64,000 nucleotides of DNA from Geodia barretti (taxonomy: Eukaryota). A program made the position numbers and the translations under genes. The notes under the pieces are model-generated. The model was not told the origin of the DNA, did no database searches, and saw nothing but the letters and a program-made list of their open reading frames with translations. Shown in pieces: positions 40,501 to 61,853 of this stretch (positions are counted from its first letter, which is position 1; the number at the start of each line of letters is the position of its first letter). The DNA lies in assembly GCA_030341885.1 (NCBI GenBank), contig CASHTH010000349.1:1-64000 (forward strand). Direction: 5' to 3'.

Positions 40501-43500
40501 GAACACTCCTATATATTACATCATTGTAAAAAAGGCGCACACCCCCGGGATCGAACCAGGGACCTCACGATCAAGAGAGGGGGTGCTTATCCATCAGACC
40601 CCACCCATTACTTGATCGAATGGGGGAACAGAAAAGAAGTGAAGTGCAAACCCTTGGCGCACTGTGACGCGCGCGCGTAAGTAAACGCATGCGCCGTACC
40701 ACTAATTGGTGGGCTGGATTTAGTTTTTAGCTGTTACTCGTGGTCTCTTGCCAGCTCGCGCAGAGTCTGACGCGGGCTAACTACACTACTAGATAGCACG
40801 CGAGAGGCGATACACGCCCTGCGTTGCATCTTCTGGTGCCTCCGAGGTACGCAGAGCACGCGGATCGATCATGCCGTAGAAAGCCGTTGTGTATTTGCAT
40901 ATTGGCTTTTTCCTGCTCTAGCTTAGCAACGGAGCGTTTTCAGAGAAAACCGCCTTTATTTTCTGACCTTCGTCGCCCGTTGGGTAGATGGTATCGTTTC
41001 TGGGACGAACAGACGTTCCAGGACAGACAAACAAACAAACAGACAGACAGACCCAACTACTGTACCCTCGCTGCGCATGCGCGCCGAGGGTAAAAACTAA
41101 ACAGCACACACGCAGAACCAGCCTGTTAACACCTATATTTCCACTTGTCCTCTTCCTCCCTCCCTGCCTCCTCCAGACGTCCTGGTGGTCTGTCAGTCGA
41201 CTGATGAAACTCCAGCTGAGCCACAATAGACTGGAGGTGCTGAGTCACAAGAACGACCAGGAGAAGGAGAGGGCAGCTTCTGATAATGACCGCAGATCCA
41301 CTGCATTTAGGTGTCTCTCCTAGTATATATGTACTCAGAATCTATTGATATTTCGTACTGTAGAACTAAAACTTTTGTGGAATGTGTATCATTTCGTAAT
41401 TCACTTCGTGTGTATTAAACGATGCCCCAAATCTAATCTCTAACTTTCTCTCTCTCCCCTCTCTCTCTCTCTCTGCCCTCACCATCTCTCCTCACTGCAG
41501 AGTGTTTGATGCCTTCAGAGGACGGCCCCAGCACCAGGCGGCCTCTCCGGAGCCCGCCTCCAGCGAGGCAGCCGACACTCAGCCTCGCGAGCTCCCCGCA
41601 GAGCTCTGGTCCTCCTCGCTGCAGAGCCTCTATCTCCATAGCAACAGACTCAAGTGGTTGCCAGGCTACCTGGGGAAGCTGGGAGCTCTTACCAGACTGG
41701 ATATCAGCAGGTATATACTCTACACTGGGGCATACCTCTCTCTCCTCTCCCCTAAAACTGACAACTATAGAATTTCTGATTTTTTTCAATCGTGAAGGTA
41801 TTTTCCTTGAAAACTTTGGTCTTACTACGCTTGCCGGCTGACTGCATTCGCAAAACTTTTTCGTGAAAAATATTACGTGATTTTCAAAACGTGTGTTAGT
41901 GCTCACCCCTCTCTCTCCCCATTCCTGCAGTAACCCAGAGCTGAAGACTCTTCCTCTCAGTCTCGGTCGACTGCACAACTGCTGGGAGCTGACTCTCCAC
42001 GGCCTCACGCTCACAAACGTCCCCCACCACCTCCTCCCGGGGGTCAGAGGTGGCTCCGCCAAACGACTCCTTGCGTACCTCCGCGCACAGCTGCGTCACT
42101 GTGAACCGTACAACAGGATGAAGCTGATGGTGGTCGGTCTCCAGGGGAGAGGGAAGACGACTCTGCTCTCTGTGTTGCGAAATCCGACGGCTCCGTTGCC
42201 AGACAACGTGTCGACGGTGGGTGTGGAGGTCGTGGAGTGGTCTCTGTCTCCTCCGGCACACGTTCTCCGAGGAGTCAGGAAGAACCAGCCGCTGCAGAGG
42301 GTACGGTGAACGAGAGGGAGGGCAGGAGTCGTTTTTCCATACGTGCGATATGTAGTATACACTGTTTATTGCCTAAACAGGCTGTCACCATTGGTGCATC
42401 TATCCACAAAATTTTTTGCGAATTTAGTGATTTGAACCACGAAACCGCCCACTTTTCCAGTTGTAGTGCAGTTGTCTATCTATTATTATTCCCCCAGCAT
42501 CAGATGGACATAGTGTTCTCGACGTGGGACCTTGCAGGTCAGGAGGTGTACTATGCCACCCACCAGTGCTTTCTCTCTCGTAACACTCTCTATCTGGTGG
42601 TGTGGAGCATGGAGGAGGGGGAGAAAGGGATTGAGTACCTGCGACCGTGGCTCCTCAACATTCAGGTACATATGCAGGATGGACACGGAGCATTGAAGGC
42701 ACGCTGTGGTATGCACATGAATCGTTTGCTTTGCCGTTGCCTCGCTACCTCGTAGTCAACACATACGTACACATTCAACACTATTGGAAAAACTGCACTT
42801 GGAACTAAACTGTAAGTATAGATCAATAGAACTGTGTCTTTTTACGTTTGAGAAAATCGGAGTCCAACTGACACATTGGACTCTACATACAACATAGAAC
42901 TGAAATGTAAGACTTATGTAGTCATTTCTTGTAACGTACCCCTACAGGCTAGGGCGCCCCATTCTCCAGTCCTGATAGTTGGCACCCACCTCGACAAGCT
43001 CCACTTCAACAGAGCCCAGGACCTGAAACAGAAGTACAAGGAGAAGATCAAGAGTCTCTACGGAAAGGCCGGCTTCCCAAGCCTCTCTGCGTGAGTCTAG
43101 TGGGTGTGGTCTCGTTTCCTGACGATCTCTCTCTCTCTCTCTGCCTCTCTATAAAGGATAATGTTTGTGGCGTCCACAACCCAGGAGGGTATGAAGGAGT
43201 TGCAGGAGAGGATCCACCATGCCGCCATATCTGCCATTGATCACGACACCAGAGACCCCATCATCGGCATGCAGGTCCATTACATACATACTCTATACTC
43301 TATACATACAGGTTCATACTAGTACATACACAACACAAAAAAAGAGATGGAAAAGATCTCAGCTATACATCATTTGATCCCTCCCCCCCAGGTCCCCGCC
43401 AGCTACATCAACCTCCAGAGACTCATCTCGGAGGAGGTGAGGAGCTGTCATGAAAAGGGGATTCCCCCTGTCCTCAGTCAGAAGGAGTTTGCAGCTCTGG

Positions 43501-46500
43501 CGGACCGCATGCCTGACTCCGACATATCTGACCCCGAGGAACTCTCTCTTGGTGAGAAGACCTGCCCCCCTTTTCTTTCCTCTCTCTCCTCTGTTTTCAA
43601 CATTTCTCTACTCTTGGCTCTAATGTTCTCTTGATACATTTCATTTACTGTATTCTCCCCCCTCCCCTCCCCCTAGCTGCCCAGTTTCTCCATGACAATG
43701 GTGTTCTCCTCCACTACAACGATCATCTCCGAGGTCTGAACAACCTCTACTTCATCGACCCGGTCTGGCTCGCCGACCTCCTCGCAGAGGTCGTCACCGT
43801 ACCCCAGCGACAGAACTTTGTCCACAACGGAATCCTGAAGGAGTCAAACGTTGCCTTCATCTTCCACGACAGCCGTCGGTTCCCCAGCAAGTATTTCGCA
43901 CAGTACCTCCAGCTTTTGGAGAGGTTTGAAATTGCTCTGTCTCTTGGCAACAACCAGCGACTCATTCCCAGCATGCTCCCGATGGAACGCCCGGCTATAA
44001 ACTTCACTGACCCCCCGACTCCCGAACCCCCAGCCGTCGATGCTGAAGCCGTTAAAGTAACGCAGCGCAGCGCAATACGAGCGACGCTCACCGGTAGCAA
44101 GCCGCCAGAGGACAACCTGCGAGTGATGTCAGATCCTGTGAACTGTATCCGTCGACGCTACAAGATGGCGTACACCCCCAGTGGGTTCTGGAGCCGGCTC
44201 ATTTCTCGTCTCATCATAAACCTGAGGAGGTCGGGTTTGATGGAGGAGCAGGCTACGGTGACACAGAGCAGCAGCGCGCCAATCATCTACTGGAGGAGAG
44301 GGATAGTGGTGATCCACTCTGGAGGAAGGTTCATTGTGGAGTCTATTCAGACCGCTGGACATCGTGAGTACCCAACACTAGTGGTTTCTTAAAACACTGG
44401 GTGAATACTATTATCAGAAACTATGTTCATACTTAGACAGAGAGTAGTAAGAGCTACACACAATTTACTAGTCTTAGTGTAAGAGCTACACACAATTTAC
44501 TAGTCTTAGTGTAAGAGCTACACACAATTTACTAGTCTTAGTGTAAGAGCTACACGCAATTTACTAGTCTTAGTGTAAGAGCTACACACAATTTACTAGT
44601 CTTAGTGTAAGAGCTGTACACGCAATTTACTAGTCTCAAATTTTCAGCTCTTGATTGACTTTACAGTAATATTATGTGCTATTTTTAGCTCTCGCATTGC
44701 GTTTCTGCTGCAATTTTACAATTGTTTTTTCTAATACACCAGCCCTATGTGAACCACTGACTGTGATTGCCTAGACGAGGGTCTGGTATTTGAGATGATG
44801 TAATGTGAATTGTCCTCTATATATAGCAGCAGTGATGGGTACGCAGGACATGGAGGCCAGTGCCAAGTTCGTGGGGGAGGGGGTGGACCTGAACATCGGT
44901 CTCCAGGGTGTCGACATCACCGTGTGGTCGTTCAACGGAGATTTCTCCGCCATGGGTTACGTGGTCGACCATCTTGACTCTCTCATCGACGAGTGGTTCC
45001 CTGGTGAGGTCTGGGGGCTAGAAATACGCTGCATGTTCGCATGTCTTCTCATAATAGTATCCTTTGAGATTTGGGAGCGTTTAGTGACTTGTGGCTAATT
45101 CTGGTGGGCTGTATTTGTCACTCTCAAACTGAATTTGCCACATGTACAGTAAAGCCAGAGACAGGAAGGCTTCAGTTTGCATTGGATTTGTCAGTTACTT
45201 GTTCAAGTTCTTAGTGACTGGGTGTGGTGTGTGTTGTGTGTGCAGGTCTGAATGACCTTGACGTGGAGGGAGAGTGGCTGGTGCAGAGACAGGTGCTGTG
45301 GAAGGTCCCTGGTGAGCTGCTGCAGAGCAGGCTGGCCACAAGAGCAGGTCTCGCAGGGAGCAATGGAGTCTGTTTCCTGACGGGGAACAGGAGGAGGTGA
45401 GGGACAGACAGACAGACTCTCCCTCTTTCTCTATCTCACTCGAGTGCTGTCCAGTGTAGTATGTGGCACTGCGAGATACAGTGAAAGAAGACACTTTGGG
45501 GACATCAATAAATGTAGGGGAGTCCTGAGTATTGAGCAGAACCAAGTAGACCTTTATTGGGAGGGTCCTTTTTCAAATGCGTCACTGTCTCCCTCCTCCC
45601 CCCGCATCTCCTCAGTTGGTGACGTTCCAGGTTGACACCTGTGCAGCAGAGGCTCTAATTGGAGATACCATCATCTGTCGAGAGTACAACGTTCGTGTTC
45701 CTCTCCGCCATCTCGTGCCGGACCTCCTCCTCACTGACCTGCCAGCCGACCTCCAGATCGATCAGTCACAGCTGGAGTACAACCCCAGGGACCCCGCCAC
45801 TCGTCTCGGCCGTGGGGGAGCAGGTGGGCGGGGCTTAGAGTGAGACCACTCCCACCACTACATGTATTATTCTCCCAAAACAGGGGCGGTGTACAAGGGA
45901 AAATACCGAAGACAGATAGTAGCAGTGAAGGAGTTCCTCACTGCAGAGCAGGTGGGTGTGGCCAAACTTTGACCCCTGTGCAATCGTAAGCCCCGCCCTC
46001 CTCACAGGCGGAGCACACGGGAGAGACTGATATGGTGCAGAGGTCGCTGGTCACTGAGGAAGACGTGATCACGTCAGGGGAGGCCCTCTTCATGTTCCGC
46101 GACCTTAGGCAAGAGGTCACGGTTCTTGCTCAGCTGGATCATCCCTACATCGTGGCCCTACTCGGTCAGTCACTCTCACACTTTAAAAAAGCTGTGGGAT
46201 TACATTAGATCTGAGAAAAAGTTTTTCCACAAAAATTTTACCTCATTTTTAATGTGGCATTTGTTTAGTGTGGCCTGAGCTTGCACCACATCTATGTGCG
46301 TTTTTCCTTGAAAAGCTCTCGGCTATAATCAATGCATTTTTCAGAGGGTAAAGTTCAGCTGATAGTGACGAGTGTCTATATTTGCAGGAGTGTCCATCCA
46401 CCCAATGTGTATGGTGATAGAGCTGGCACCCATGGGGAGCCTGTTTGGAATACTGGACAAACAGGTTGAGCAGTTCCGGGCGGCCCAGGAGGACAGAGCG

Positions 46501-47903
46501 TCTGCACTTCTGAGGATGCCGGGCGGAGTCCTTGGACATGAGATTTCCACGAGAACCGCTCTCCAAGTGAGTCCTCTTCCTGTCTCCCATTGCTTGTGGT
46601 ACACATGACCTTCATTCTTGGAATGAGGTCCAGTAGTAAAGATGTGACAATCAGGGGCCCAATTTTGAAATATTCTAGAATAGCTTACGAGCAAGATGAG
46701 AAACATTTTCGCAGTCAGTAGCTACAATTTGTGTTCTAGACGAGTTACGTAAGACTCCATTACGTGACAGGTTGCGCTTGGCTCTGCGCTATCTCCATGG
46801 TCACGGGGTGGTGTACCGAGATCTTAAGTCAGACAACGTTCTGGTCTGGTCTCTGGACCCCAATGATGTCATCAACGTGAAGCTTGCCGACTACGGGATC
46901 TCCCGGTTTGCCAACCCCGGCGGAGTAAAGGGGGAGGAGGGTACTCCGGGGTACCTCGCCCCCGAGGCCATCCGTCGCCGTGGGGAGGACCAGGCATTCG
47001 ACGAGAAGGTGTGCATCATTTAGAACAAACCTGAAACAATCAACAGTGTGTAATTCTCTCACAGGTTGACATATTCTCCTACTGCCATGCTCCTGTTTGA
47101 GCTGCTGACTGGCCAGAGACCGTTCGAATCACTCACCACTACTCAGGAACTCAACAAAGCTGTCTCCCAGGGCGACCGCCCGCTGGTTGCCGAGGGCAAC
47201 CTAGACCCGGCGTTCCCTGGAATGCTGGACCTGATGTATGACTGTTGGAAACAGTCTGCGATGGAGAGACCCAGCGCCTCCGAGGTAAGCCTGCTGCGTC
47301 TGAGACCACACCCACTAATCCCTTGACCACACCCACCTATCCCAGGTGGTTCTGAGAGTGTGTGAGCCGGGCTTCGTGTGTCGTAAGCACACCATCACCA
47401 AAAGTAAGGACCACCCTCTCCAGAAGATTGATACCATATACGCCAGACCCATCTTTGCCGACGATTTGAAAAAGAGCTACCAGGTCTGGACCTGGGCTCG
47501 TCAGGACACTGAGAGGTGAGGTCGACTTTTTCTATTTTAGATGTGTTACTATTTTTAGTGATGATGTCATTGTAGGAATTTCAGCATCATTGACGCGAGG
47601 AAGGGAGTGTACAATCTTCCGGAGAAGAGTGCTCCAGGTGGGCGGGTGTACGCCATGACGGCCACTGGAGAGGTCGAGAAGAGGATTTGGATCGGGACTT
47701 CGGTCAGTAGTTGGAGGGAGGGGAGGGAGGGGAGGGAGGAGAATTGTGTGTTTATGGCGAGAGACGTGTAGTTTACTGCCTGAAACTGTGTTTTGAGAAA
47801 GTGGTCACGTCACTCATAGTACATACATGTAATTGTAAACCACTAAGATCAAGTCAAGTCAACAATGACGAAACTCACCCCATTGTCATGTCACATTACG
47901 GTG

Positions 47904-47940
<37 letters not shown>

Positions 47941-49474
47941 GCGTTGTAGGACTGTGAGATACAAGTGTACGGATATCGCAATGTGGGAGACCCTCAGTGC
48001 CTCTGGACGTTCCTCATGAAGGACTCTGTTCTCTCACTCAGTACTCAGCTGGAAGGAGGCAGGGTACGTCGTTTCCTGCGTTCATTGCACACTTTTAGAG
48101 GAACTTGCAATTAAAATAATTGATCCTTTTGTACAAACACAAATCAAGGTCACAATTTTGAATGGTTTAAAGCTCTTGAAAAAATTTTCAATCTACAAAA
48201 TGTAATGTAGTACTGCCATGTCTATCTGTTGTTGGCAGGTGAAGAGGGTGTTTGCATCTCTGGCCAACGGTACCCTGTGTGTGTTCTCACGAACCAGCAC
48301 CAGTCTAGACCCCGCCGCGGCAACCGTTCCCGTCGGCGACGCCAAACTCATCCCCGAGGCCTGCACCATCAAATGCGAAGACGAGAAGTACAAACAGGAG
48401 GCAGAGGATTGGGCTGACCCTCTCGTTTTGAAGCTTGACGAGCGAAACAAGTCGGCCAAGTGCATGGTGTTTGTTGGTCGCGACAAGCTGTGGTGTGGCT
48501 GTGGAAACACCATTACCGTCGTCGACATCGTAAACATGATGGTAGATCATAACATCCCAGTGTTCGTAAAGAGGATGGCCCTGGTGAACGAGCTCGTTTC
48601 GAACGGAATCAAGGTGTGGGGGGTCGGGCGGCAGCTGTCGTGTGTGATGGAGTGGGACGTTGCCTCGTACAAGTTACTCCACGTTTTCAACTGCAGTGAG
48701 ATTGACCAAACTGGGACCAACGTACGGGCTGACCCCTCCCTGATTGAAGACCTTATTGACCCCACTCGCTCCACTGATAAACCAACCGCTAACCCCTCCG
48801 CCTCTGTCGTGCCCGAAGTAAAAATTGAGGAAACAGTGGAGGAATCTTTCAACGTTCATAATGACCCTACCCCCACGTCGAGCCACGCCCCCTTTTCCAC
48901 AATGAGGACTCGACAGACGCTGCGAGTGGTGAAGTCTCGGCCTCGGAGAGCGGCGATGACGAGCCAGCAGCCGTCTGCGTCGCCCAAAGCAGCAAGTCGC
49001 TCGCGTCTCCTCACAGCCAGGAACAGGGTCCTCCGTAAACAGCAGGGGTCGACTCGCACCACCTCTCTGGTTGTGGTTGATAAGACACTGTGGGTGGGAA
49101 GAGGGATGGGCGACGTTCTAGTCATCGATATCACTGAGAACGAAGCGTCTCACGGTACGGTTCTGGCCAGGTTGACAGTTGAAGACAGCGAGAAATACGG
49201 AAATCGATCTCATCACAAGCTGCAGTGCGTTGCTGGAGAGTATGTGGTGTCTTCGCAGTGGCTTGAACCAATCGACTTGCGCCGCGGTAGCAACGCGCCA
49301 CCTGCAGGAGAAGGAGGAGGGTTGCTAGGGCAACTGTCAGACACGCCCCTCGTAACACACCAGGCCATCACCATCTGGGAGGCGTGGAACCAGGATGACA
49401 TCAGGCAGGTGACCAGGCGACGCGATTCCATTCTGGCCCAGGAAATGAGGGAAGAGGAATCAGACGGTGTGTGA
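37551..49474 (+). CDS. LRRK: Leucine-rich repeat kinase (ROCO family; ANK - LRR - Roc GTPase - COR - Ser/Thr kinase - WD40), ~25 exons. Approx. exons: 37551-37578, 37744-38674, 38922-39073, 39332-39510, 39613-39801, 41178-41311, 41501-41710, 41931-42300, 42498-42665, 42948-43090, 43157-43274, 43392-43551, 43677-44363, 44827-45006, ~45245-45398, ~45606-45832, ~45882-45950, ~46005-46168, ~46385-46568, ~46771-47013, ~47061-47288, ~47346-47517, ~47586-47703, ~47949-48064, ~48238-49474
   Basis: ANK: [24 protein letters not shown]...; LRR: [33 protein letters not shown]; Roc: [24 protein letters not shown]...[10 protein letters not shown]...[12 protein letters not shown]; COR: [36 protein letters not shown]...[17 protein letters not shown]; kinase: [18 protein letters not shown]...[14 protein letters not shown]...[16 protein letters not shown]...[11 protein letters not shown] (DYG as in LRRK2)...GTPGYLAPE...VDIFSY; WD40-like C-term to stop TGA 49472-49474. 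All junctions GT-AG. Confidence 0.9.
40260..41110 (-). mobile_element. Repetitive insert in LRRK intron 5 with two degenerate tRNA-derived (SINE-like) modules on the minus strand (~40378-40462 and ~40536-40625; T-arm signatures GGTTCGAATCC / GGTTCGATCCC), a partial tandem duplication, (ACAGACAAAC)n microsatellite 41027-41057 and flanking CGCATGCGC motifs (40685, 41072)
   Basis: Forward gattcgaaccgggcacc and gggatcgaaccagggacc are reverse complements of tRNA T-arms; cloverleaf does not close (acceptor and T stems mismatched), so not called as functional tRNA genes. Confidence 0.4.
44440..44640. repeat. Minisatellite, ~34-nt unit x5 (agagctacacacaatttactagtcttagtgtaag) in LRRK intron 13
   Basis: Five consecutive near-identical units. 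Confidence 0.9.
47890..47945. repeat. (CT)n microsatellite in LRRK intron
   Basis: ctctctctctctctctctctctctgtctct. Confidence 0.8.
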
Positions 49475-49607
49475 AAAACTTTTTACCGTAGAACTGTTTA
49501 GCGTGATATGCCCGACTAAAAATTTTAGATTTTTGTAAAATTTTTTTATTACGCAGTACTTGTACGCATGCGCGTATCGTAACCGCACGCGGTGTGTGTG
49601 TACGAAG
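49475..49607 (+). promoter_or_regulatory. Very short LRRK 3' flank / amnionless promoter with ACGCATGCGCG at 49564-49574
   Basis: Only 133 nt separate LRRK stop from amnionless ATG. Confidence 0.4.
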
Positions 49608-51311
49608 ATGGAGTACTTTGTTCTTGCTGCGGCTGTCTTTTGCCTGCGTCTGGCGGGCTCTGAGGATCTCTACTGGAGACCCAACACTGACTGGAACAAT
49701 CGTAACAACTGGAAACTTGGGCGCGTGCCGTGCGAGGGAGATGTAGCTGACTTCAGCTCCGTACGTGCTCTCTCGCGTGCGTAGCTGGAAGTGTAACGAA
49801 CAGAGACGTTTGTATGCAGGTTCCTCGTGGGTCTGTGATACGGCTGGACGGCCGTGCCACCATACGCAGCGTGGTTCTGCCCGTAGGTAGCACCATAGAG
49901 CTGGGCAAGTCACTCACACTTCAGTTCTCTAACACCACTTCTTGCAAGAGTGAGACGTTTGCCCAACCGCTAGACTTTATTCAGCTATCCTTATCCTCTT
50001 ACAGTTGAAACTGCCAATGGACCAATGGTTGCTCCAGTTGAGGTAAGACAGAGAGGGGGACACTGTGTGCATGACAACTGAAACCTGATTTTGTATCCTG
50101 TTTGACCTGATTCCACTACTCCGCTGACAGGAAAACAACCTGTTTGTTGGCGCTGGGCCCAAATACTGGGAACACTCCAAGAACTGGGAGACTGGCGATG
50201 GGAAATCTGCCACGTCCCCTCCTTGTGGGAAAGACAGAGCTCTCTTCAGGGAGGTGAGGCTCTTTCTCCCTCCACAAACACCCGCTACCCTCTCTCGTCT
50301 CCTTCCCAGGGTCACTACTACTGGACTGTGGAGTCCAACATGTCTAACGTGTCAGTGCAGCATCTGAAAGTGAGAGGAGAACTGGTCACAACTGAACTCA
50401 TCCCAAGTAGGCACATACTCCGCCAAATCCGTCATCTTGTCGCTTTCTCTCTTTGTTTCCTCTCTCAGAAGTGGCTCCAGAGTTTAAACTAAATCTGGTG
50501 GTCGACCCGCGATGTGGCGAAGACCCTTCCCTCTGTCCCTGTCTGTTAGAGACCCAACCTCAGCCCTCGCCCGCAGCCGGAGGGAGGAAACGAGAGGGGA
50601 ATAATTCTGGTCGAACGGCAGCCATTGTCGTTGTCGTACTGATCCTAATCCTGCTGTTGGTCGGACTGACTGTACTACTATTAGTCCTCTGGTGAGCTCT
50701 CCTGTTGAGCACCTCTAATCCAGACACTAATGAGACAGAAGAAAGTGTCAATTTTAGTTTGGTGTCCGTATTGCAGGGGTTCAATTCCATGCAAGAACTC
50801 TAAATAAAAGGTGACCTTATTAGCTGTTAGAGGGTGTTTCTCTCCTACAGGCTGAGGTGGAGACGTGGACAGTTCTACAAGAAGGACAGTCCTCTTGGAG
50901 AACCTGAGGATAGTCTCAACAGCCCTACTGCCCGGTAGCTGCACCACACCGTTCTTCAGTCCAGCAACAATTCACTCCTCCCTCCCTCCCTCCCTCGTCT
51001 TTCTTCACAGTGCGGTGTCTGCCGGAGATGGTGTATTGTTGTTTGACAACCCAATATACGAAACGGAAGGAGTTGCAAGGAAGAAAGGGGTTAAAGGCTC
51101 GCCCGACAAAGCAGATACTAGAGCCCACGAAATGGAAAATATCGCAATTTTGAGGTGAAACTTAACGTTCTCACTGTCTCACATCTCCTTTTCTCTCTCT
51201 GCTCAGGCCATCAGCGAGCCACTATGAACCTGTCGATTTTTCCGAGGACACTAGCTCAGCCTCCAGGCCAGAGAAGAAGACTCCGATTCTTGATGAATAC
51301 GAGCGCTTGTA
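49608..51311 (+). CDS. AMN: Amnionless-like type I membrane protein, ~10 exons with several ~55-nt introns
   Basis: Signal peptide MEYFVLAAAVFCLRLAGS; EDLYWRPNTDWNNRNNWKLGRVPCEGDVADFSS (cf. human [32 protein letters not shown]); TM AAIVVVVLILILLLVGLTVLLLVLW followed by RLRWRR; cytoplasmic LLFDNPIYETEG (FxNPxF/Y endocytic motif); exons approx 49608-49760, 49820-49963, 49997-50042, 50130-50256, 50311-50408, 50468-50692, 50851-50938, 51008-51158, 51212-51311. Confidence 0.75.
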
Positions 51312-51469
51312 GCTCACTTTCTCTCGGAAAGTGAACATTTTGAACACAAGAACTGAAAAACTTTGCTTTACCGTAAAACATGTATGAGAATAGCATGTAT
51401 GAGATATAGTAGCACACGGTATATATTATTTGTATGATACAAAAATTGAGAAGCTAAAAATTTCCTGGT

Positions 51470-54400
51470 TCATTTGGTGAGTGGTGTTGGTGAGGTGGGC
51501 GAGGTGTTGGTGAAGGTAGTAGGGCTGGAAGGGAGGGTGGTGGTGGTGTACGTGTGGATCTCAACACTTCCCTCATCGAGGAGCGGCTCTCTGAATGACG
51601 TGTGGCCAACAACACGAGGCCTGTTCTCCTGAATACCTCGGTTTGTCCTGTCCACACCTGTCGGTATGCCATCAACATACGTTGCATCGTCAGGAATGCT
51701 CTGCGGAACGTGGAGCACAATTCTTTTCATCTTCTTTGCGCAGTACTTTGTGTAGCATTTCAGCAGGCAGCTCGTCAGTTTTGGGAACCGCACAAACATT
51801 CGGTAGAAGAACACTCCAAACATCACGATGTAAGCCAGCACCACGAGTACAGAGGTGTACTCCGTGGCACTTCTCATGGTTGTGACCTGTTGATCGTGGC
51901 CGTCGTCGAGTTTGGCATTGAAGAAGAGAGAACCGAGGAACAGCATAATCAGGTTCAAGAGGAATAGACTGTCAAGGGAATTGACCCATTTGGACTGGAA
52001 CGGTTGAAGCTCCAGCTGCAGGAACAGTAGGACTGTCAGGAAGAAGACAGTTACAAAGGTGCTGGTTGGCGGAGCCGTAAACGAGGCCATTATGATGGGA
52101 ACCCACCTGAAGATTAGTCTCAGACCCAACCAGAACCGAAATCTCGGTTTGAACGGGTTCCAGAACGTGTCGTAGAACGGTTTGTATTTCTTGAGGAACT
52201 TGTTACTGTAGAGAACTGTTGGGAAGAGGAAGATGATGGGTATGGGTATGATGTAGAACAGGATCAGGAGAATGGCAGCGAAGGCGAGTAGCCCGTGGAA
52301 TCGAGTGAAATAGACCAAAGTGGGGTCTAGCATCCAGCGTACTAACTTGTGGTTGTCTTCAGTGTAAATCACAGCCGTGCTGAGAAGGTCAAATGAAAAC
52401 TGTAGGATACTCACATAGGACATAATCAGAAGTGTCGCAAATGCCTCGATTGTTGCAAATGCAGTCTTGGCTCGGACCTTGCAGCATTTGGACTTGAACA
52501 CGGAGCGGAGTACGGCCATCAGAAGAGAGAGGTAGAGAGGGAAACTCAGCTCCCACCAACTTCGCTCCAATGCCGACATGTTGCTGTGGAAGCAAGTCTC
52601 AATACCCCAAGTTCAGAGTGAGCCAGTTGGCCAGGACAGCCACTCTGGGTCCGCCATCACTTGGAGACAGGATCCTCTCATACAGACTGACTATATTGGC
52701 CCAGAACAGAATTCCGTTCAGGTAGCCACTGGAGAGGTTGACAGGGAATATCACGAGTAGCGCTATCAGGAGAGCTCCTAGAAGCAGAAACAGGAGAATA
52801 ATGACGGCATAGTTGTTGGAGCACTTCAGGCATCGGGGACTGCCAAAGACATTGGTGTACCCATCCAGACATGATCCGCAGAGCACACCTCCCCTGTTGA
52901 GACTGGGTCGACACTGGAGGTCAAAATTGACAGAGTTGTTCCTCACAGAGATGTTGGCATCGCCTGGCTCACAGAGACCTCGAATGCAGTTCCCCACTGC
53001 AAATGTAGATCTGTCCACCGGTCCAACCCACAGCTGTGTCGGGACTCGCAGGACAAGGTTTGTAGAGTCACACTCAACCTCTCTTTCCAACAGCTCCTGG
53101 CTGCACTCACAACGCAGTGTGGTCTCCCTGTACTCAAACCCCACGGGACAGTCCAGCAAGTTGACACGAATATCCACCTGGGCTGGTCGATAGCCAACGT
53201 CTAGACTATATACTACAATGTTGGTTGTGATATTGGTAGCTCCCAGCACTGCGAGAGAAGTGGAGAGATTGCTGTTGGCAGTATACCCAGTGATTATATT
53301 GGGACCCAGGGCAGGTATGATCGTCTGAGACAAACCCTGGGAGAGTTCTACGAAGGAGCCCAATATGGTTGAAATGCTCTGGTCCAGACTGTCCACCGGT
53401 CGAATGGGGACTTGTGCTACCTCCCCCGGAGCAAGACTGTACTCTGTGATCCCATTCTCAATGTACACTCTGCTGACTGGAGTGCGAACGTTTCGGATTC
53501 CAGTTGGATCCGGGGTAAACTGGAACAGATGGCTGAAATGGGTGTCGAGTATCTGCAAGACGTTGATGGTGTTGTAGGTGAGAATGAGAGGTTGAGACCA
53601 GGGGCAGTTGAGCAGAGCCGAGCCAAAGATTGTCCCTGCCAGCAGGGCAGAGTTGTTGGTGAAGCTGACACTGAAGCTGCTAGTGTTGAAGCTGCAGTCG
53701 TCACAGAAGGAGAACTGGTCGTAGTTGAAGTACATGAAACAATCAAACAGTGTCGGGATCGGGGAACTGGTGATCTGGTTCACGTAGAGACCTCCACCGT
53801 ACACCCTCGCCACGTTGTTCGACACATCCAGAGAGGATCTCGGCAGAATTACGAGAAATGCTATCTGGAGAATTATCCCTGCTCCGTAGAACCCTATGTT
53901 TCTGGCGATGGATACGTTTCCAGCTATGCCAATGATGCTGCTAGTTCCCTGCAGCGCGGAGCCAATGTTATCCTCAAACACGCAGTCGCCAGCCAGCGTG
54001 ACGTTGATGGCATTCACGTCGAATACGGCGGTGCTGTCTGAGCTGGAGATGGAGGTAATATCTCCCAGTGTCTCCAGTTTGTTAGCTGTGATTTTGATGT
54101 TCCAGGCCAACACCTGGATCCCTAGTACTCTGGCATGGAGTTTCAGCTCCTGAATATAGACTGCAGCACCTCGCGTCGCTCTGTTCCCGGTGAACACACA
54201 GTCCTCGATGAAGAAATGTGCACTGTCTGTCAGATCGGCAACGGCTGTGGTAACGAGGGAGAGAATCTCAATTGCCCCTCCGTTTATTGCACCGTTGTCT
54301 GTAAAATTTGAGTCCCTGGCTACAAACCCAATCCTCCTCTCGTGAATGAAGACTTGTACTTCAGGAAAAGGTGACACTAGGTCGTTGTACACGCCAATCG

Positions 54401-55445
54401 CTCCTCCACTTGTGAGAAAGTCGAGGTCAAATTCACTCGACAAGAAGCCGTTTCTGGTAAACAAACAGTTGTCAAACACGGCATATGAGTGAGACGCTCC
54501 CTGGAAGATCCCCACGTGAGCTGCACTGCCGTAAGTGGCCGAGTTCTCTTCAAAGACCGTGGAGACAGTGGTAACATTCATAGCAAAGCAGGATTGTCCA
54601 AATATGGCGGTGATCCCTCCACTTCCACCGATAGGGTACCCAGCTTCCCGAACCTCGAGGGAGTCGCGATAATTAAACTCCACTGCTGCCAGGTCAGAGC
54701 ACTCGGTGTTACCAACAAAACTGCTGTTTGTGATTGTCAGGGAATAGAAATCGAGATTTTCGCAGGTTGAGATGTTGGAGTCAACGAAATCCTGAAAGAG
54801 AAAGAATGCCCCTCCGCCAATTCTCTCTCCAGTGTTCCTGATGTAGTTTGTGTTGTTGACAAAGGAGCACGTCTTTTGCGCCTGTCTGTTGTTGGAGAAA
54901 CGGCAGTTTGTGATGCTGGAATCTCCAACTACATTGATCCCAGCCAGCCCTAGACCTGTGGTGTTGGTGATAGCCACATCTTCCATTTCCAGACCAGACA
55001 CGCTGGCCAGGTAGACTGCCACTCGAGTTCCGGTGGGAACTTTGAAAAACAGCTGCAGTAGCTCCTGAGTGAGACTCACTGCCTGTGTCAAGGTCTCTCC
55101 TGTCACTCCACACTCCATGATCTGTAAGTTCCTCAGTGTAAGACCCGATATATTGAGGAACATCAGTCCGACTCCATCAGAGCAAGTGATGACAACATCA
55201 GTTTGGTCCAGCCCAACTATGGTGATATTGTCAACTCCACTCACCAGTACTGCCTCACTCAGGCAGTGAACACCACTCTCTAGGGAGACAACAGAATTTG
55301 AAGAGATGTTCTGAAGAGCCTTGTGTAGTGTTCCATCTGAGGTGCAAGGTCCACTTGGCTCCAGCCTTTGCCCCCTGCCAACCTCTAGCAGAAGGCAGAC
55401 TGCCACAATGATGCCAAGCAAACCACACTTTCCCATTTCCCTCAC
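51470..55445 (-). CDS. Beta-helix/multi-TM paralog A: signal peptide, Pmp-like right-handed beta-helix repeat ectodomain, EGF-like Cys-rich modules, multi-pass TM C-terminus; reading frame interrupted at ~52580-52601 (in-frame TGA plus +1 shift), so a possible pseudogene, assembly error, or (unlikely) a 22-nt intron
   Basis: ORFs 52599-55445 (948 aa, MREMGKCGLLGIIVAVCLLLEVGRG...) and 51470-52579 (369 aa TM block) are collinear with paralog B; repeats such as SNFTDNGAINGGAIEILS, FTNNSALLAGTIFGSALLNC; upstream TATA-like (cctttatagg) and CCAAT at 55514-55529. Confidence 0.6.
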
Positions 55446-55624
55446 TGTACACCAGCTCTAGCTTCTACAACTGTCTTTCTGGATCAGCCCTAAAACTGCA
55501 CAATAGCCTCTCCCCTATAAAGGATTGGCACATGAATCTCATAATCACAGTAATCAATCAAAGTTTATCATGTGACATAGAGTAGTGACAATATGAATTT
55601 GTATAATTTCACACGCTTATGGAA

Positions 55625-58600
55625 TCATTGAATATGATTGGTATTGTTGATTGGCACAAGGTCAGCTAGTCCTTCCTCCAGTAGCGGTTCTCGGAGTACG
55701 GAGTAATTTACCACAGGGGGCGGGGCTTTCTCTTTGTCCTGGGGTACCCTGGTCTTTGTGGGAGAGCCCGGGGTGGGCTGGTCTCCCTCTCCCTCGCTCA
55801 CTGTCGAGTTTTCCCTCATTTCCTCTCCATCTTGGCTCCCACCTGACACACTATCACCGTCCGTGTGTGGCTGTGTTAGTGGAGTTGTTTCTCTGATGAA
55901 TATTTCAGCTCTTTTCCTGCGAGTAAGACGGGAGTAGAGAGAGGCAAATGGCCTGCGAATGACGGGGAACCGGTGCTGTACATGCCACAGCACCACTAGC
56001 AGAATGGCCACGTAGGCCAGAGTGACAAAGAACGTAAAGTACTTAAACTGAGCCCTGTGGTAGGGGATGTAGCCTTTGTTATCTTCATTTGCAGTGATGG
56101 AGATCTGAAAGTACAGGGCCCCCATGGCCAGCATTATTATGTTACTCATGAAGAATGTGTCGAGAGTGTTTCTGAAAAATCCGTCAAACGGTTGTATGGT
56201 TACCTGGAGGAACAGTGTACAGACGGCAAATATACCTAGAAATAGGATGTTCATTGGTTGAGGAACGACATAGGCAGTGGTGTAAGGGATCACTCGTAGG
56301 AGAAGACGTAATCCAACAAAGAATCTGAATTTGGTCTTGAACGGTGCCCAGAATGCGTCGAGCACTGGTTTTATCTTTACTCCGAGTCTTGTGGTGAATG
56401 CGATGCCAGGGAACGCTAGGATGAGGGGAGGAGGCAACACGACAGTCAGCAGCAGAAAGCAAGCCAGAATGACCAGGAACTTGTGGAGACCATGGAAATA
56501 CTCCTGGTTTGGGTCACTTCTCCAGCTGAGGTAAGAGGCTCCGTCAACAGAACGGAGCAAGAGAGGGCTCAGTAGCTCTATACACACCTCCAACATGGTG
56601 GCATAGGACATGAGGAGGATCGTGGCAAACAACTTAGCAGCGGAGAACTTTGCACGGCTGAAGAACCGGGAGAGACGGCGGGATTTCTTTGAGAGAAGGG
56701 TGACAATGATCATGAGGAGGAGGAGGTAGAAAGGGAAGACCAGTCTTAGAGCCACTTTGTCCAAGGTTGTCATCCCATCGAAGAAACAATGCCCGATTCC
56801 AAAGTCCAGATTGAACCAGGCGACCACAACAAATATGGCAATGTTTCTACTACTGGTGTTGAGAATTGGAACGTATATGGAGAGGACGTTTGTGTAGAAA
56901 AGAATCGAATTCAGGTAGCCTTCGGACACCGTAATGTGGAGAAAGAGGATCCCGAATGTAATGACTACGCCGCCAAAAGCGAAGAGAATGATGAGTGAGA
57001 GACCATAGTTGTCTTGACACTGAGTGCATCGGTGGGAACCCAACTGGATGCTGTAACCCTCGGCACACTGCCCACAGAGGATGCCCGAACGGTGGTACCG
57101 CGAATGACACAACAGATCAAACCCCGGCGGTTTCACCTGTCTCTCTCCGGGGCTGCAAAAGTCAGATCTGCAGTCCGCGACGATGAAAGAGTTGTCCGGT
57201 CCCGGCCCCACCCACTTATTATTGGGGACGGTGAAGTTCATCGAAGTGGAGTTGCACTGAATGTCGTTGTGGTTCATGAGCCCCGGCTCACACTCACACC
57301 TTCCATTTTGGTACTGAAACCCGACTCTGCACTCAGTGAGGTTAATCTTGAACCCTGTGTGTGAGTAAGAGTCCGTGGCGTAGAGGTAAATGGTGACATC
57401 ATTCACATTCTTAGCTCCGGTCACAATCATAGGTACAAGGTCGCCATATTGGAGCTCATTAGCAATCTGCAGGAAGCTGAAACTCGAGAATCCGAGCAGC
57501 GACGAAACGTTTGGGTGTCCAGGGCTGGGTTTGGAGGAGATGAGGACAGGCAGGCTCTGGTTAAGATGGTCGTAGCCACTCACGTTGAGATAGAACAGCT
57601 CACCAGGTGAGTAGCTCAGTTGAAGAGAGCTGTGGATAGTTAGTTTGTTTGTGGGAGTGGTGACTGCACCGACAGTGGTCGGATCACTGCTGAATCTGAA
57701 CGAATCGTTCAAGTCAAGGTAGAGTATGTCTAGAACGTGAGGTCGGTTGTACTTTTCCCTCAGCTGCATGCTCCAGGGACACGTGTCGAGAGTTGAGCCG
57801 AAAATCAGACTCCCGAGAGGTGCCAAGTTGTTGTTCAGCTCCAGAGTAAAGTTGAGAGCCTCAATATCGGGACAGAGGTCCTCTTCAAAACAGATGGTGT
57901 CCACATTTTCGAAGAAGAGGAAGCAATCGTGGTGGTTAATGTCGGGGGAAAACGCAATGTGATTGACATACACCGCCCCACCTTCTACTACGGCTGAGTT
58001 GTTTTCCAAAACCAGATGAGAATTGTTCACTAGAACAATGTAAGAGTTTGCGATAAGGCTAATAGCACCGCCAAACGAGCCAGTATTGTTGCAAATTACC
58101 GTCCGGTCGTGGAAATTTATGACTGACGACACCGAGCGAATGGCAGCTGCAAAGTTATCGGCGATCAGATTATTCTCTCCCTCGAATGTCACGTTGACTC
58201 CCTGGAACTCCACAGTAGCCGAAGTGTCTAACTTTGAAGAGGGTATGTTACCAGGGGCATCTTCTGAATAATATATCTTATTATTGGTGAGGACTGTGTT
58301 ACGAAGGACAGCTTTCATCCCTGGCTGAAGACCGCTCTGTTTCAGCTCTTCGATGTGCATGGCTGCTCCCACAAGAGCTACGTTGCCACTCAGTCTACAG
58401 CTGTCCAGAGTAACAGTGTCTCCTCCCCTCGTCTTGTACTTGGAAAAGATGTTGATTGCCGCCGAGTATGACCCTCTATTCTCAGTCAGTGTACATCCCT
58501 GTAGGGTGACATTATTGCTCTGTAATAGCGTAGTACCAGCTCCCTGATTGCTGGGGTGAGCGACATCTCTGACCATATAGAATCCAGAGCCATGCGTTAG

Positions 58601-59653
58601 TAATTGCCTGTCGTCCAGATCTCCAGTAAGGCCGTTCCTGTGGAAACGGCAATCTCTGAAGGAGATGTTGTTTCCAGCAGCTCCTTCAAACAGGGCCAGG
58701 TAAGACCCTCCACCCAAAAGACTGGTGTTGTTTTGGAAGAGAGCAGAGGTAACGGTCACGTCTGCAGCGTAGAGAGACTGTGCCAGGATCAGTGACAGAC
58801 CTCCGCCTGCCCCCAGCGAGTAGCCGAACCTCTCCGTCAACTTTTTATAGTTCGTGTCGCTCACTTCTATGTAAGCAGAGAGGCCGCAGTAGGAATTGTT
58901 GACGAACTCCGTGTTGAGGATCTGTAGCGAAGTGAAGACGTTTTCCGATGTTTGGTTGTAGTCGGCGAAGATGAAAAAGGTCCCTCCGCCAACCTGGTTG
59001 TTTTCCGTAGCGTTGACGTTCGTGAGGTTATCCAACGGCAGTCTGTAGCAGAAGGGAGGGCGGTTGAGGGAGAAGGTGGAGTTTTCCACGACAGCCGAGC
59101 CTCGCGGGTTGACTACCAGCATCCCCAGTCCTTCTGTGCCGGTCACTTCCACCGCGCGAACTGTAAAATCAGACACCATCCCTGCAGCAACGGCGATCTT
59201 GTCCGTGGGGTGAATGTCGTAAAAAAACCTTGTCCTGTTCTTCAGCTCCTCCTGGAGGTGATCCAGCTTCCCCGAGCCCGTAGCTCCGCAGCTAACGACC
59301 GTCAAACCTTCCAGAGTCAGCGTGCTGACGTCGAGAAAGGCGAGCCCAACTCCTACTGTGCAGATGACTACGACACTCTCCCGGTGGCTGACGTTCCCCG
59401 AGAACGTCACGTTGTGTAGATGCTGAACGTAGCCGAACTCAGTGAGACAGTGAGTGCCGAGGAGAAGGCGGTAGAAAGTGTCCGACCTGACATCTCCCTG
59501 GGAAATAAGGGAGTCGAGAGTCGTGGCTCCGTCAGCTCTTTTCTCAGTGCAGTTCTGCGGGAAGACGTCTACAGTTGCTGCTCCAGCGTACGTTAATAAG
59601 CATGCAGCAGAGACTATGGAAAGACACGTTAGGAGGGAGAGGGCAGCGGCCAT
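55625..59653 (-). CDS. Beta-helix/multi-TM paralog B, intact 1342-aa single-exon ORF: signal peptide, >30 N-glycosylation sequons, Pmp-like beta-helix repeats, two EGF-like Cys modules, ~9 predicted TM helices, cytoplasmic tail
   Basis: MAAALSLLTCLSIVSAACLLTYAGA; repeats TENRGSYSAAINIFS, NNSAVVEGGAVYVNH, NNNLAPLGSLIFGSTLDTCPW; EGF-like CRVGFQYQNGRCECEPG and CGQCAEGYSIQLGSHRCTQC; TM helices LSLIILFAFGGVVITFGILFL, IAIFVVVAWFNLDFGIG, LVFPFYLLLLMIIVTLL, LFATILLMSYATMLEVCIELL, FLVILACFLLLTVVLPPPLILAF, FFVGLRLLLRVIPYTTAYVV, ILFLGIFAVCTLFLQVTI, FMSNIIMLAMGALYFQISI, FTFFVTLAYVAILLVVLW; TATAAAG at ~59670-59677 (minus), GC box 59735-59743. Confidence 0.8.
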   Translation of the reverse strand: MAAALSLLTCLSIVSAACLLTYAGAATVDVFPQNCTEKRADGATTLDSLISQGDVRSDTFYRLLLGTHCLTEFGYVQHLHNVTFSGNVSHRESVVVICTVGVGLAFLDVSTLTLEGLTVVSCGATGSGKLDHLQEELKNRTRFFYDIHPTDKIAVAAGMVSDFTVRAVEVTGTEGLGMLVVNPRGSAVVENSTFSLNRPPFCYRLPLDNLTNVNATENNQVGGGTFFIFADYNQTSENVFTSLQILNTEFVNNSYCGLSAYIEVSDTNYKKLTERFGYSLGAGGGLSLILAQSLYAADVTVTSALFQNNTSLLGGGSYLALFEGAAGNNISFRDCRFHRNGLTGDLDDRQLLTHGSGFYMVRDVAHPSNQGAGTTLLQSNNVTLQGCTLTENRGSYSAAINIFSKYKTRGGDTVTLDSCRLSGNVALVGAAMHIEELKQSGLQPGMKAVLRNTVLTNNKIYYSEDAPGNIPSSKLDTSATVEFQGVNVTFEGENNLIADNFAAAIRSVSSVINFHDRTVICNNTGSFGGAISLIANSYIVLVNNSHLVLENNSAVVEGGAVYVNHIAFSPDINHHDCFLFFENVDTICFEEDLCPDIEALNFTLELNNNLAPLGSLIFGSTLDTCPWSMQLREKYNRPHVLDILYLDLNDSFRFSSDPTTVGAVTTPTNKLTIHSSLQLSYSPGELFYLNVSGYDHLNQSLPVLISSKPSPGHPNVSSLLGFSSFSFLQIANELQYGDLVPMIVTGAKNVNDVTIYLYATDSYSHTGFKINLTECRVGFQYQNGRCECEPGLMNHNDIQCNSTSMNFTVPNNKWVGPGPDNSFIVADCRSDFCSPGERQVKPPGFDLLCHSRYHRSGILCGQCAEGYSIQLGSHRCTQCQDNYGLSLIILFAFGGVVITFGILFLHITVSEGYLNSILFYTNVLSIYVPILNTSSRNIAIFVVVAWFNLDFGIGHCFFDGMTTLDKVALRLVFPFYLLLLMIIVTLLSKKSRRLSRFFSRAKFSAAKLFATILLMSYATMLEVCIELLSPLLLRSVDGASYLSWRSDPNQEYFHGLHKFLVILACFLLLTVVLPPPLILAFPGIAFTTRLGVKIKPVLDAFWAPFKTKFRFFVGLRLLLRVIPYTTAYVVPQPMNILFLGIFAVCTLFLQVTIQPFDGFFRNTLDTFFMSNIIMLAMGALYFQISITANEDNKGYIPYHRAQFKYFTFFVTLAYVAILLVVLWHVQHRFPVIRRPFASLYSRLTRRKRAEIFIRETTPLTQPHTDGDSVSGGSQDGEEMRENSTVSEGEGDQPTPGSPTKTRVPQDKEKAPPPVVNYSVLREPLLEEGLADLVPINNTNHIQ

Positions 59654-59934
59654 GGCGGCAACCGTGGATCTTTATAGTCAACACAGGAAGTGACACTGTT
59701 TTGTTGGTATAAGTGAGCGTGGCATAATAAAAGAGGGCGGGGCTCGCTTCGACAGCTGTTTTCACACGTCATTGCAAAAATCGCGACAATATGCACTGAC
59801 TACTTAGTTACGAGTGCAAGGCAATGCCTGCCGTTTGCACTGTCTTTCCTATCTTGTCCATTGCCTCCAGCTTTGAAATGAATGCCTGCAAAAACCGCAG
59901 AGAGGTTGAAAACTTACACACATGCAGGAGAATG

Positions 59935-61715
59935 GCTCACAGTAGGTCCAGACTCATTGTGGGTCTGAGCAGAAGAGCAGTAGGCAATACACATACTCTC
60001 AGTCGTGTGTCCCCAGGAAAACTCCACTCCACCTTAGGCCCACAGGAAAATGATGGCAGAGTTCTTGATAATAATTCTCTGGACTGGGTATGAAGGCTAA
60101 TACCTTGGTGGTCTAGAGAGACAGCAATAACACCAGCCAACCTTTCCTCTACCCCTGTCAATAGTCTGGACTCTGCATATAGTAAGAAGCCATCATATCA
60201 TAACTATAAGATGGTGGTCCACAATCTATACCGAGGAACTTTTCTCTCATAGCTACATGAAGCTGGCCCTCGGCTGCAGCTCTATGGAAAACGAGTATTA
60301 GTTGATAATTGAGTAGAACGATGATGTCATCATTACAGGGCAGCTTCTCTGGCCAGCATAGTCTTTATGATGTACTCCCCCGTTCCTACACACGATTGTG
60401 AAAAATTAGAGCCATAAAAAAAATGTAAAGAATGTTCACCAGATGTGCTGCTAGCCACAGCTCTACTGTGAGGACCAGCATCTCTCTCTGCCCAGCATCC
60501 ACACCCATACACCGCAGCCTGCGAGACAAGAGAGGGATGGAGAGAAGGGGGTTGGAGGGCTTACCTGCCCAATTCTGCCTGGGAATTTTAACGATATTCC
60601 ACCACTAGACACGCCTCCTGCCACTCCCCCTCGTTTGTCAACACATACCGCACCAACCGTATCCAACGGAGCCTCTGAAACACTCTGCAAAGAAATTTCT
60701 ATAATTATGGTTTTTTTGCCAATGATAATTCTTGCATTATGAATGGGAGGCATCTTTCTTTTCTTGACAGGCGGATGAGCAGTGATTTCATCCAGTCTTG
60801 ATTTGTGGTCAACGTACACACTCCGAGCTCTGTCTGAGGAGAGAGAGGATAGAGAGGAGAGAGTACTTGAGGGTGAGGCCCAAGAGAGCGGAGAGAGAAA
60901 GAACCAGTAATGAGGTCATCTGGAAGACAGAGATTCAAGCCTTCTTGTCTCGCCCAGGCCCCAGCTCCTTCTGCCACTAACACTCTGTATAATGTATACC
61001 ACCAGACAGTACACTATAGTCATATCACAGGAGTCCTAACATTGGGGAGACTCTTCCTAAAGGTAGGCAGCCTTCAGAGCTTTTCTGTAGCAGTCTCAAC
61101 GCCAGGGATATTGGGTTTGGCACACCTGAGACGGAAACAGTTGAGAAATAGGAAGAATGGAGTAAGGAGTGATGGTTATATCCAACCAGAGGCAGCTCCA
61201 ACAGCTCCAAACCCTCCTCCGCTATCCATGATACTGGCATCGCACTCAACCGTACCAGTCAGAGTCAGATTAGAGCCACGACCGGCATTTGTCAGGGGAC
61301 TGTTCTGTGTGTGAGAGAGAGGAAAGATAGTCTCAGGTTAGAAAAACGATTTAGTACCTCTAGAACTGAAATGGCTCTGGAGATTGCATCACTGCTCGTA
61401 TGCCCAGCCTCCAAAAGAACCATGGCCTGTAAGAGAAGAAATAAGCTGCCATGTGGTAGACTCTCTCCTCTTACCTCCTTGCAGGCAGTTCTACACACAG
61501 CTTTTAGCTCGGAACTATTGGAATTACTGTGGTATCCTGCTCCTGTATAATTATGGAATAAGGAAAAGAGTTATAGATTTTTTCGTGGAAATCTCCGTTC
61601 CCTGCTAATGCTGGATATGCCATGCATTGCCAGGTGGAAGAGGCTCGCGGGAGAACTCGCAATCGGCGCTGAGCGGTCTCTTGCCTGCATGGACGGCCAC
61701 GAACGGAACAGCCAT
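59935..61715 (-). CDS. TASP1: Threonine aspartase 1 (taspase-1, Ntn-hydrolase), multi-exon
   Basis: MAVPFVAVHAG | (G)AGYHSNSNSSELKAVCRTACKE | QAMVLLEAGHTSSDAISRAISVLE | GVPNPISLALRLLQKSSEGCLPLGRVSPM | LVAEGAGAWARQEGL | DTVGAVCVDKRGGVAGGVSSGGISLKFPGRIGQ (human DTVGAVVVDHEGNVAAAVSSGGLALKHPGRVGQ) | AGVIAVSLDHQGISL... Confidence 0.8.
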
Positions 61716-61853
61716 TCCCCCTCGCCCCCTCCGCTCGAGCATGCGCAGTTCAGATACAGTCGTGCGGGGAATTCCCCTTACGCCACCACGGGGGTGGAGC
61801 TAGCGCACCGTCCAGCAACCGAAGAAACACACGAAAAAACTTTATGTTCACTG

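Follow-up and report, generated by a model that had tools for sequence, protein, structure and literature searches.

A tandem pair of intronless sponge genes predicted to join a β-helix ectodomain to an unassigned polytopic membrane domain

Architecture of genes A and B

The stretch of DNA from the deep-sea sponge Geodia barretti that we have analyzed, referred to throughout as the window, comprises the first 64,000 nucleotides of contig CASHTH010000349.1 (assembly GCA_030341885.1) and contains a tandem pair of large minus-strand genes, A and B, whose products are predicted to consist of a long β-helical ectodomain, a Cys-rich module, a bundle of approximately nine transmembrane (TM) helices and a cytoplasmic tail (Table 1). 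Gene A is listed among the open reading frames (ORFs) of the window as a single intact frame of 1342 codons plus a stop, is ∼99% identical to a protein (P0001) present on two independent contigs, and has orthologues of the same length at identities that range from 82% down to 32%. No family copies other than these two are found in the window. A first-pass annotation made from the DNA letters had described two adjacent minus-strand paralogues, and this description holds fully for A; gene B is split in the window into ORFs of 948 and 369 residues and is intact elsewhere, as detailed below.

Both proteins begin with a hydrophobic, signal-like stretch, as do 120 of the 148 full-length family representatives, in keeping with the signal peptides that had been proposed. 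The ectodomains are also rich in NxS/T sequons, as claimed earlier, with 25 in A and 17 in B against 11.4 ± 2.8 and 10.5 ± 2.7, respectively, in shuffled sequences. The Pmp-like repeats of the same annotation are borne out in part. FxxN and GG[AGS]x motifs occur in both proteins and A lies just above the cutoffs of the two relevant models (22.7 bits against 20.6 for Pfam Chlam_PMP, PF02415; 16.4 against 15 for POMP_repeat, TIGR01376), but B scores only 13.4 with TIGR01376 and has no Pfam match. Other members of the family are well above the repeat cutoff, with scores of 131, 67 and 63 bits (the first two with Chlam_PMP), and Beta_helix is matched at 99.7 bits. AlphaFold2 predicts a right-handed parallel β-helix for the ectodomain. 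In an alignment of ectodomains from 13 divergent members the invariant β-helix columns are limited to C, G, F, N and P, and no column is an invariant D, E, H, K or R; D363, E436 and K438 are invariant among close orthologues. Because no acidic, basic or His residue is invariant across the 13 members, the β-helix is read as a probable binding rod rather than an enzyme. In the AlphaFold2 model of the gene A ectodomain, in which 25 must be added to the model numbering to obtain that of the protein, a middle domain follows the β-helix, its helices lying within residues 601-621 of the model and its strands within 627-747.

The Cys-rich module that comes next contains 11 Cys residues, at positions 775, 786, 788, 800, 828, 833, 849, 860, 863, 876 and 879 of the gene A product, each of which is conserved in 99-100% of 182 family sequences. 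Two EGF-like Cys modules had been suggested at this position, and a Cys-rich module is indeed located directly before the membrane domain; no Pfam EGF model matches it, however, in either protein or in 16 C-terminal domains of the family searched at E ≤ 10, and the only hits are sub-threshold matches of DUF7630 and DZR_2 to the last Cys pairs. A resemblance to TMEM8/DUF3522, suggested at the same time, was not recovered in the 16 family members at E ≤ 10. One further Cys, Cys956 of gene A (56788-56790), is invariant as well. It is situated in an outer loop after the half-helix, and of the invariant Cys residues outside the module it alone has a probable extracellular location. Since the number of invariant Cys residues in the module is odd and a twelfth is located in an outer loop, a putative disulfide between the unpaired 11th Cys and Cys956 is suggested, which would lock the ectodomain onto the bundle.

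When hydropathy is combined with an AlphaFold2 model (residues 765-1250, 16 sequences, pLDDT 81.8, pTM 0.79), the membrane domain is predicted to comprise approximately nine membrane-spanning helices, a short half-helix and a β-hairpin on the extracellular side. Lys and Arg are clustered in the loops that are predicted to be cytoplasmic, which fits a topology with the N-terminus outside and the C-terminus inside the cell, so that hydropathy, model and charge distribution agree with the ∼9 TM helices and cytoplasmic tail of the first-pass annotation. The β-helix plus helical bundle that an AlphaFold model had been expected to confirm are likewise both predicted. No Pfam family matches the domain, either in scans of the full proteins or in 16 members at E ≤ 10, the family profile has 0 matches among PDB sequences, and a Foldseek search of the PDB with the model yields a best E value of 0.19 with a TM-score < 0.2 and no full-length fold match, in line with the initial description of an unrecognised family. 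No internal repeat was detected when the membrane domain was tested for one. Conserved residues are found on the outer face of the bundle (W1044, D1047, Y1052, H1057) and on its inner face (D1099, P1104, R1110, R1120), and a basic inner loop, KPxLDAFWxPFKxxxRFWxGLRLLxR, is conserved; in the form KPxLDAFxxPFK...RFWxGLRLLxR it is present in both A and B. The strong constraint on the bundle and on this loop, along with the conservation of polar residues on both faces, suggests that the domain transmits or conducts something and is thus more than an anchor.

The tail of the gene A product has 8 Lys and Arg residues among its first 30 and is overall the least conserved region. It ends in a motif, LREPLL followed by acidic residues, that is nearly invariant among orthologues and paralogues (at least 90% in a 14-sequence alignment); the corresponding element in gene B is FREPLLDEG (window ∼51557-51583), and 69 of the 148 full-length representatives have a match to [RKQ][ED][PSA]LL in their last 120 residues. 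The motif, [ST]x[LF]REPLL[DE], is dileucine-like, yet falls outside the [DE]xxxL[LI] consensus.

Table 1. Features at and next to the gene A/gene B locus, in window coordinates
Feature	Position	Strand	Basis
Gene A coding sequence, single exon	55625..59653	-	ORF list, orthologues, dN/dS 0.117 against the 82% orthologue
Gene A signal peptide (predicted), residues 1-25, MAAALSLLTCLSIVSAACLLTYAGA	59579..59653	-	hydrophobic N-terminal stretch; cleavage site inferred
Gene A right-handed parallel β-helix ectodomain (predicted), PMP/pectin-lyase-like, ∼residues 26-630, heavily N-glycosylated (predicted)	57764..59578	-	
Gene A middle domain, ∼residues 631-770, two helices then β-sandwich	57344..57763	-	AlphaFold2 secondary structure
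Gene A juxtamembrane Cys-rich module, residues 771-882, 11 family-invariant Cys	57008..57343	-	
Gene A polytopic membrane domain, residues 883-1235, ∼9 TM helices, short half-helix, extracellular β-hairpin	55949..57007	-	
Gene A cytoplasmic tail, residues 1236-1342	55628..55948	-	basic just past membrane
Gene A conserved tail motif REPLLEEG, residues 1321-1328	55670..55693	-	at least 90% in 14-sequence alignment
A-B spacer, 188 bp, gene A stop to gene B ATG	55437..55624	-	read directly
Gene B, paralogue of A, 1321 residues when intact	51470..55436	-	split by one inserted base in window
Single extra T, GGGG-T-ATTGAG on coding strand, shifting the gene B frame	52604	-	alignment to L001
Last large exon (β-propeller) of LRRK/ROCO-like gene, conserved neighbour	48218..49474	+	weak Beta-prop_LRRK2 match, E 1e-07

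Family members, tandem conservation and selection

A profile of the C-terminal domain, that is the Cys knot together with the membrane domain, retrieves 16,203 representatives (clusters at 50% identity) at E ≤ 1e-3 and 5,220 at E ≤ 1e-30. The best 150 matches span profile positions 1 to ∼475, are mostly ∼1200-1650 residues long and in all cases have the domain at their C-terminal end. A word-indexed protein search with the same profile returned 8 proteins. Alignments of A and B with 20 homologues extend over the entire length, and both products carry the marks of the family, namely the 11 Cys, C956, the inner loop and the tail motif. One member cluster includes a protein from the freshwater sponge Ephydatia muelleri (KAL5515445.1), establishing that the family is common to two sponge genera, Geodia and Ephydatia. 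No description of the family was found in Pfam, in the PDB or in the literature on PMP/β-helix proteins in sponges and on DUF7630.

The products of A and B share 30-31% identity, and three related contigs have the same arrangement, A followed by B with neither gene broken; in these contigs the orthologues of A and B are, respectively, 82% and 80% (L006), 58% and 59% (L007) and 56% and 50% (L005) identical to those of the window. Because of the low identity of the pair and the conservation of the tandem in these three contigs the A/B duplication is, as judged from sequence comparison, ancient, and the recent duplication or retroposition that had been put forward for the pair is not in accord with these data. 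Against the closest orthologues dN/dS is 0.117 (A) and 0.110 (B), which indicates purifying selection on both genes; within A the ratio falls to 0.061 for the membrane domain, which is also the best conserved region whatever the evolutionary distance. Elsewhere, on contig L003 (10001-24047), four family genes encoding proteins of 1348, 1298, 1296 and 1377 residues are located within 14 kb. Two of them are 83% identical, and the family therefore also expands by recent local duplication. A further contig, from Logan (L004, 4269 nt), is of transcript size and has no poly-A end.

The gene B frameshift and the neighbouring genes

In the window gene B is read as a 948-residue ORF (52599-55445) and a 369-residue ORF (51470-52579), with the real ATG at 55436 and not at the edge of the longer ORF. 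The junction, read directly, places the change of frame inside AACTTGGGGTATTGAGAC. Two independent metagenome contigs from the same species, L001 and L002, lack the T at 52604 and encode an intact gene B of 1321 residues. The first of these, 99.3% identical to window positions 45607-61788, was used for the base-by-base alignment; the second carries an identical gene A and a nearly identical gene B. Apart from the indel, gene B in the window differs from its counterpart in L001 by 8 synonymous and 5 non-synonymous substitutions. The inserted T is probably an assembly error, since the same assembly has a compensating pair of frameshifts in the TEP1 gene (see below), the alternative being a true null allele in the sequenced animal. 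The published assembly of this demosponge (Tetractinellida) was produced from PacBio reads at ∼19x, polished once with Pilon, and has a G+C content of 49.3% (PMC10542158). The G+C content of the window agrees with this value, and the TEP1 match described below assigns the window to that assembly.

The spacer between the two genes measures 91 nt in L006, 139 nt in L007 and 324 nt in L005. With such close spacing, common regulatory sequence or co-transcription of the two genes is possible. TATA boxes had been assigned to both genes, but the TATAAAG of gene A (59670-59676) is found a mere 17 nt before the ATG, too close for a start site ahead of that codon, and gene B has only a TATAGG-like string ∼80 nt upstream.

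The genes were also said to be single-exon in an otherwise intron-containing region. Genes A and B do lack introns, but so, essentially, do two other genes of the window, and in this part of the Geodia genome long genes without introns are frequent. The first of the two is TEP1 (12232-20274, plus strand), with TROVE, DUF4062, NACHT and WD40 domains and a product of ∼2400-2600 residues; the second is a TRAF-like gene (20733-22949, minus strand) with RING, zf-TRAF and MATH domains in one ORF of 738 residues. The TEP1-like ORF of the window is 94% identical to a protein whose 90% cluster includes the annotated G. barretti protein CAI7998411.1 ('Telomerase protein component 1'). The latter matches TEP1 at 100% over 12232-16623 and at 99.9% over 16846-20271, skipping exactly the ∼220 nt between them (16624-16845, plus strand), a stretch that is interrupted by two stops in frame 0, is open in the +1 frame, where it still encodes conserved protein, and is not an obvious intron. 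Because the stretch is still coding in the +1 frame, two compensating 1-nt indels must flank it. The pair of indels is most likely an assembly error, with a single ORF of ∼2400-2600 residues in related sponges. Long ORFs can thus be interrupted or altered by single-base indels in the published G. barretti assembly, gene B and TEP1 being examples, and the annotation of such genes needs to be checked against independent assemblies. Further ORF fragments (27379-30286, plus strand) match a myotubularin-like phosphatase domain and are exons of an intron-containing gene.

The LRRK/ROCO-like gene next to the pair (37746-49474, plus strand) shows Ank, LRR and β-propeller domains in the window; no stretch of its Beta-prop_LRRK2 match is significant alone. 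COR and kinase domains are found in the L003 copy, and kinase and propeller in that of L006. Such a gene adjoins family genes in L001, L003 and L006, and it keeps this position even beside an A orthologue of only 35% identity. The G+C content at the A/B locus, 0.49-0.51, is the same as in the rest of the window; in view of this and of the single ORFs of TEP1 and the TRAF-like gene, the use of intronlessness as a sign of foreign origin is not supported.

Possible functions and related systems

We consider A and B to be receptor-like surface glycoproteins, that is polytopic receptors with large ectodomains, a reading whose mechanism we infer and which we hold to be about evenly poised between right and wrong. 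In this mechanism the signal peptide would be cleaved and the protein inserted with its N-terminus outside and its C-terminus inside the cell, so that the β-helix, of ∼600 residues, would be a stiff rod that binds a ligand outside the cell, with glycans, the matrix or microbial surfaces as the probable partners. The connection between ectodomain and membrane bundle would be a rigid one, possibly made by the 11th Cys-Cys956 disulfide, and the conserved bundle with its basic inner loop would pass the binding event to the cytoplasm, where the tail motif may serve in sorting or docking. Overall, such a protein would work like the adhesion GPCRs or polycystin-1, without membership in either group.

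Several points weigh against this picture. Low dN/dS values of ∼0.1 disfavour a fast-evolving recognition role for A and B and argue that the two serve a conserved function, although the wider family, with its local clusters and recent duplicates, may behave differently. The nearest structural neighbours of the ectodomain are carbohydrate-active enzymes. The AlphaFold2 models were built on 13-16 sequences only, and AlphaFold2 is reported to over-predict β-solenoids for artificial repeats (bioRxiv 10.1101/2024.10.30.621056); the sequences modelled here, unlike those repeats, are natural and divergent. The disulfide to Cys956 is putative. What is known of the membrane domain is equally compatible with signalling, transport, channel activity or lipid handling, and the named members of the family come from Geodia and Ephydatia only, so that its demonstrated breadth is limited.

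Among the other explanations, an ion channel or transporter, in which the conserved nine-helix bundle would be the functional core, possibly oligomeric, and the ectodomain a gate, sensor or scaffold, is judged unlikely. The proteins might instead be membrane-tethered carbohydrate-active enzymes, with a β-helix that cuts, epimerises or remodels a polysaccharide of the sponge matrix, of symbionts or of food bacteria and a polytopic domain that either anchors the enzyme or exports or takes up the product. The structural neighbours of the ectodomain speak for such a role, but the A/B ectodomains are only 8-17% identical to pectin-lyase-fold enzymes and phage tailspike depolymerases and show no catalytic residue conserved across the 13 aligned members (D363, E436 and K438 are invariant among close orthologues), and these enzymes are soluble or virion-bound where A and B are polytopic; we regard this explanation as quite unlikely.

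Two remaining proposals concern the origin and the reality of the genes. A bacterial PMP-like adhesin gene could have been acquired horizontally, fused to a eukaryotic membrane domain and domesticated, a history compatible with any of the functions considered here and, in our estimation, very unlikely. PMP/POMP repeats are mainly bacterial, A and B have no introns, and G. barretti is a high-microbial-abundance sponge (PMC10542158); almost 200 non-bacterial proteins are reported to match PF02415 (PMC11166332). On the other side, pattern scans of 185,579 bacterial and archaeal species genomes and of IMG/VR, each made with two conserved peptides and hence of limited sensitivity, gave no relative, no PHROG matches, the G+C content equals that of the flanking host genes, some of which are intronless too, and the family is found in both Geodia and Ephydatia. 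Any transfer must therefore have been ancient, before those lineages split, and an ancient bacterial origin of the β-helix portion is possible but leaves no visible trace in these genes. That the locus holds two pseudogenes, belongs to a transposon, encodes a viral envelope protein or results from faulty gene prediction is extremely improbable. The frameshift of gene B in the window and the very high copy number of the family might be taken to point this way; gene B is, however, unbroken in L001 and L002, two independent assemblies from G. barretti, and in the related contigs L005, L006 and L007, the assembly that breaks it has frameshift artefacts in TEP1 as well, dN/dS is ∼0.11 for both genes, synteny with the LRRK-like gene is conserved, and no viral relatives were found in the IMG/VR pattern scan or among PHROGs. 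We have rejected a pseudogene pair or mobile element on the basis of the intact copies, the low dN/dS and the synteny.

The receptor-like reading can also be set beside known systems. Chlamydial Pmps and related PMP/POMP adhesins resemble A and B in their FxxN...GG[A/G][I/L/V] repeats, which form a right-handed parallel β-helix at the surface, and this likeness suggests, by analogy, a stiff rod that binds or acts like an adhesin. Pmps, as type-V autotransporters of bacteria, have a C-terminal β-barrel anchor, whereas A and B are eukaryotic, are predicted to be N-glycosylated and have an α-helical anchor of ∼9 TM segments; the repeat signal in A and B is marginal, and no autotransporter model in Pfam matches either protein, the C-terminal domain being α-helical. 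In overall plan the proteins are like adhesion GPCRs and polycystin-1, in which a conserved polytopic domain with a tail in the cytoplasm likewise carries a very large, glycosylated ectodomain and, next to the membrane, a region rich in Cys. Assignment to the adhesion GPCRs was rejected, as a GAIN domain/GPS motif with a secretin-type 7-TM domain was not found, and assignment to the polycystin-1/PKD group likewise, as REJ, PLAT and PKD_channel have no matches in Pfam scans of the full proteins. A pentameric ligand-gated ion channel was also considered and rejected, the combination of a Cys-loop β-sandwich and a four-helix pore not being found.

TMEM8/PGAP6 has in common with A and B a Cys-rich module directly before a polytopic domain and differs in its unrelated ectodomain and in the DUF3522 and EGF signatures for which, as noted above, the 16 members give no match. 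Animal surface proteins with a pectin-lyase-like parallel β-helix (PbH1) ectodomain include fibrocystin/PKHD1, PKHD1L1, CEMIP and TMEM2. Each of these either is secreted or crosses the membrane once, and G8, IPT or GG domains are present in them, while the anchor of A and B is polytopic and no such domain was found in A and B by Pfam scan. The parts of A and B are thus of known kinds, a PMP-type β-helix and a large-ectodomain polytopic protein; their combination and the membrane domain are undescribed in Pfam, the PDB and the literature searched.

Sponges filter and house dense microbial communities, and the surface molecules with which they sense microbes, food and matrix are poorly known. 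We tentatively suggest, as a possibility that is on balance rather doubtful, that A and B belong to an undescribed class of animal surface receptors or channels, expanded to thousands of sponge genes, in which a PMP-type rod would be tethered covalently, through an invariant loop Cys, to a ∼9-helix domain of new fold. If so, animals without most of the receptor families of bilaterians could rely on this class for sponge-microbe or cell-matrix recognition. Members of the family are easily recognised and have no introns, and their most conserved part is a membrane domain with no match in Pfam or among solved structures. Should this domain signal or conduct, the family would represent a major unexplored receptor repertoire of early-branching animals as well as a new membrane-protein fold.

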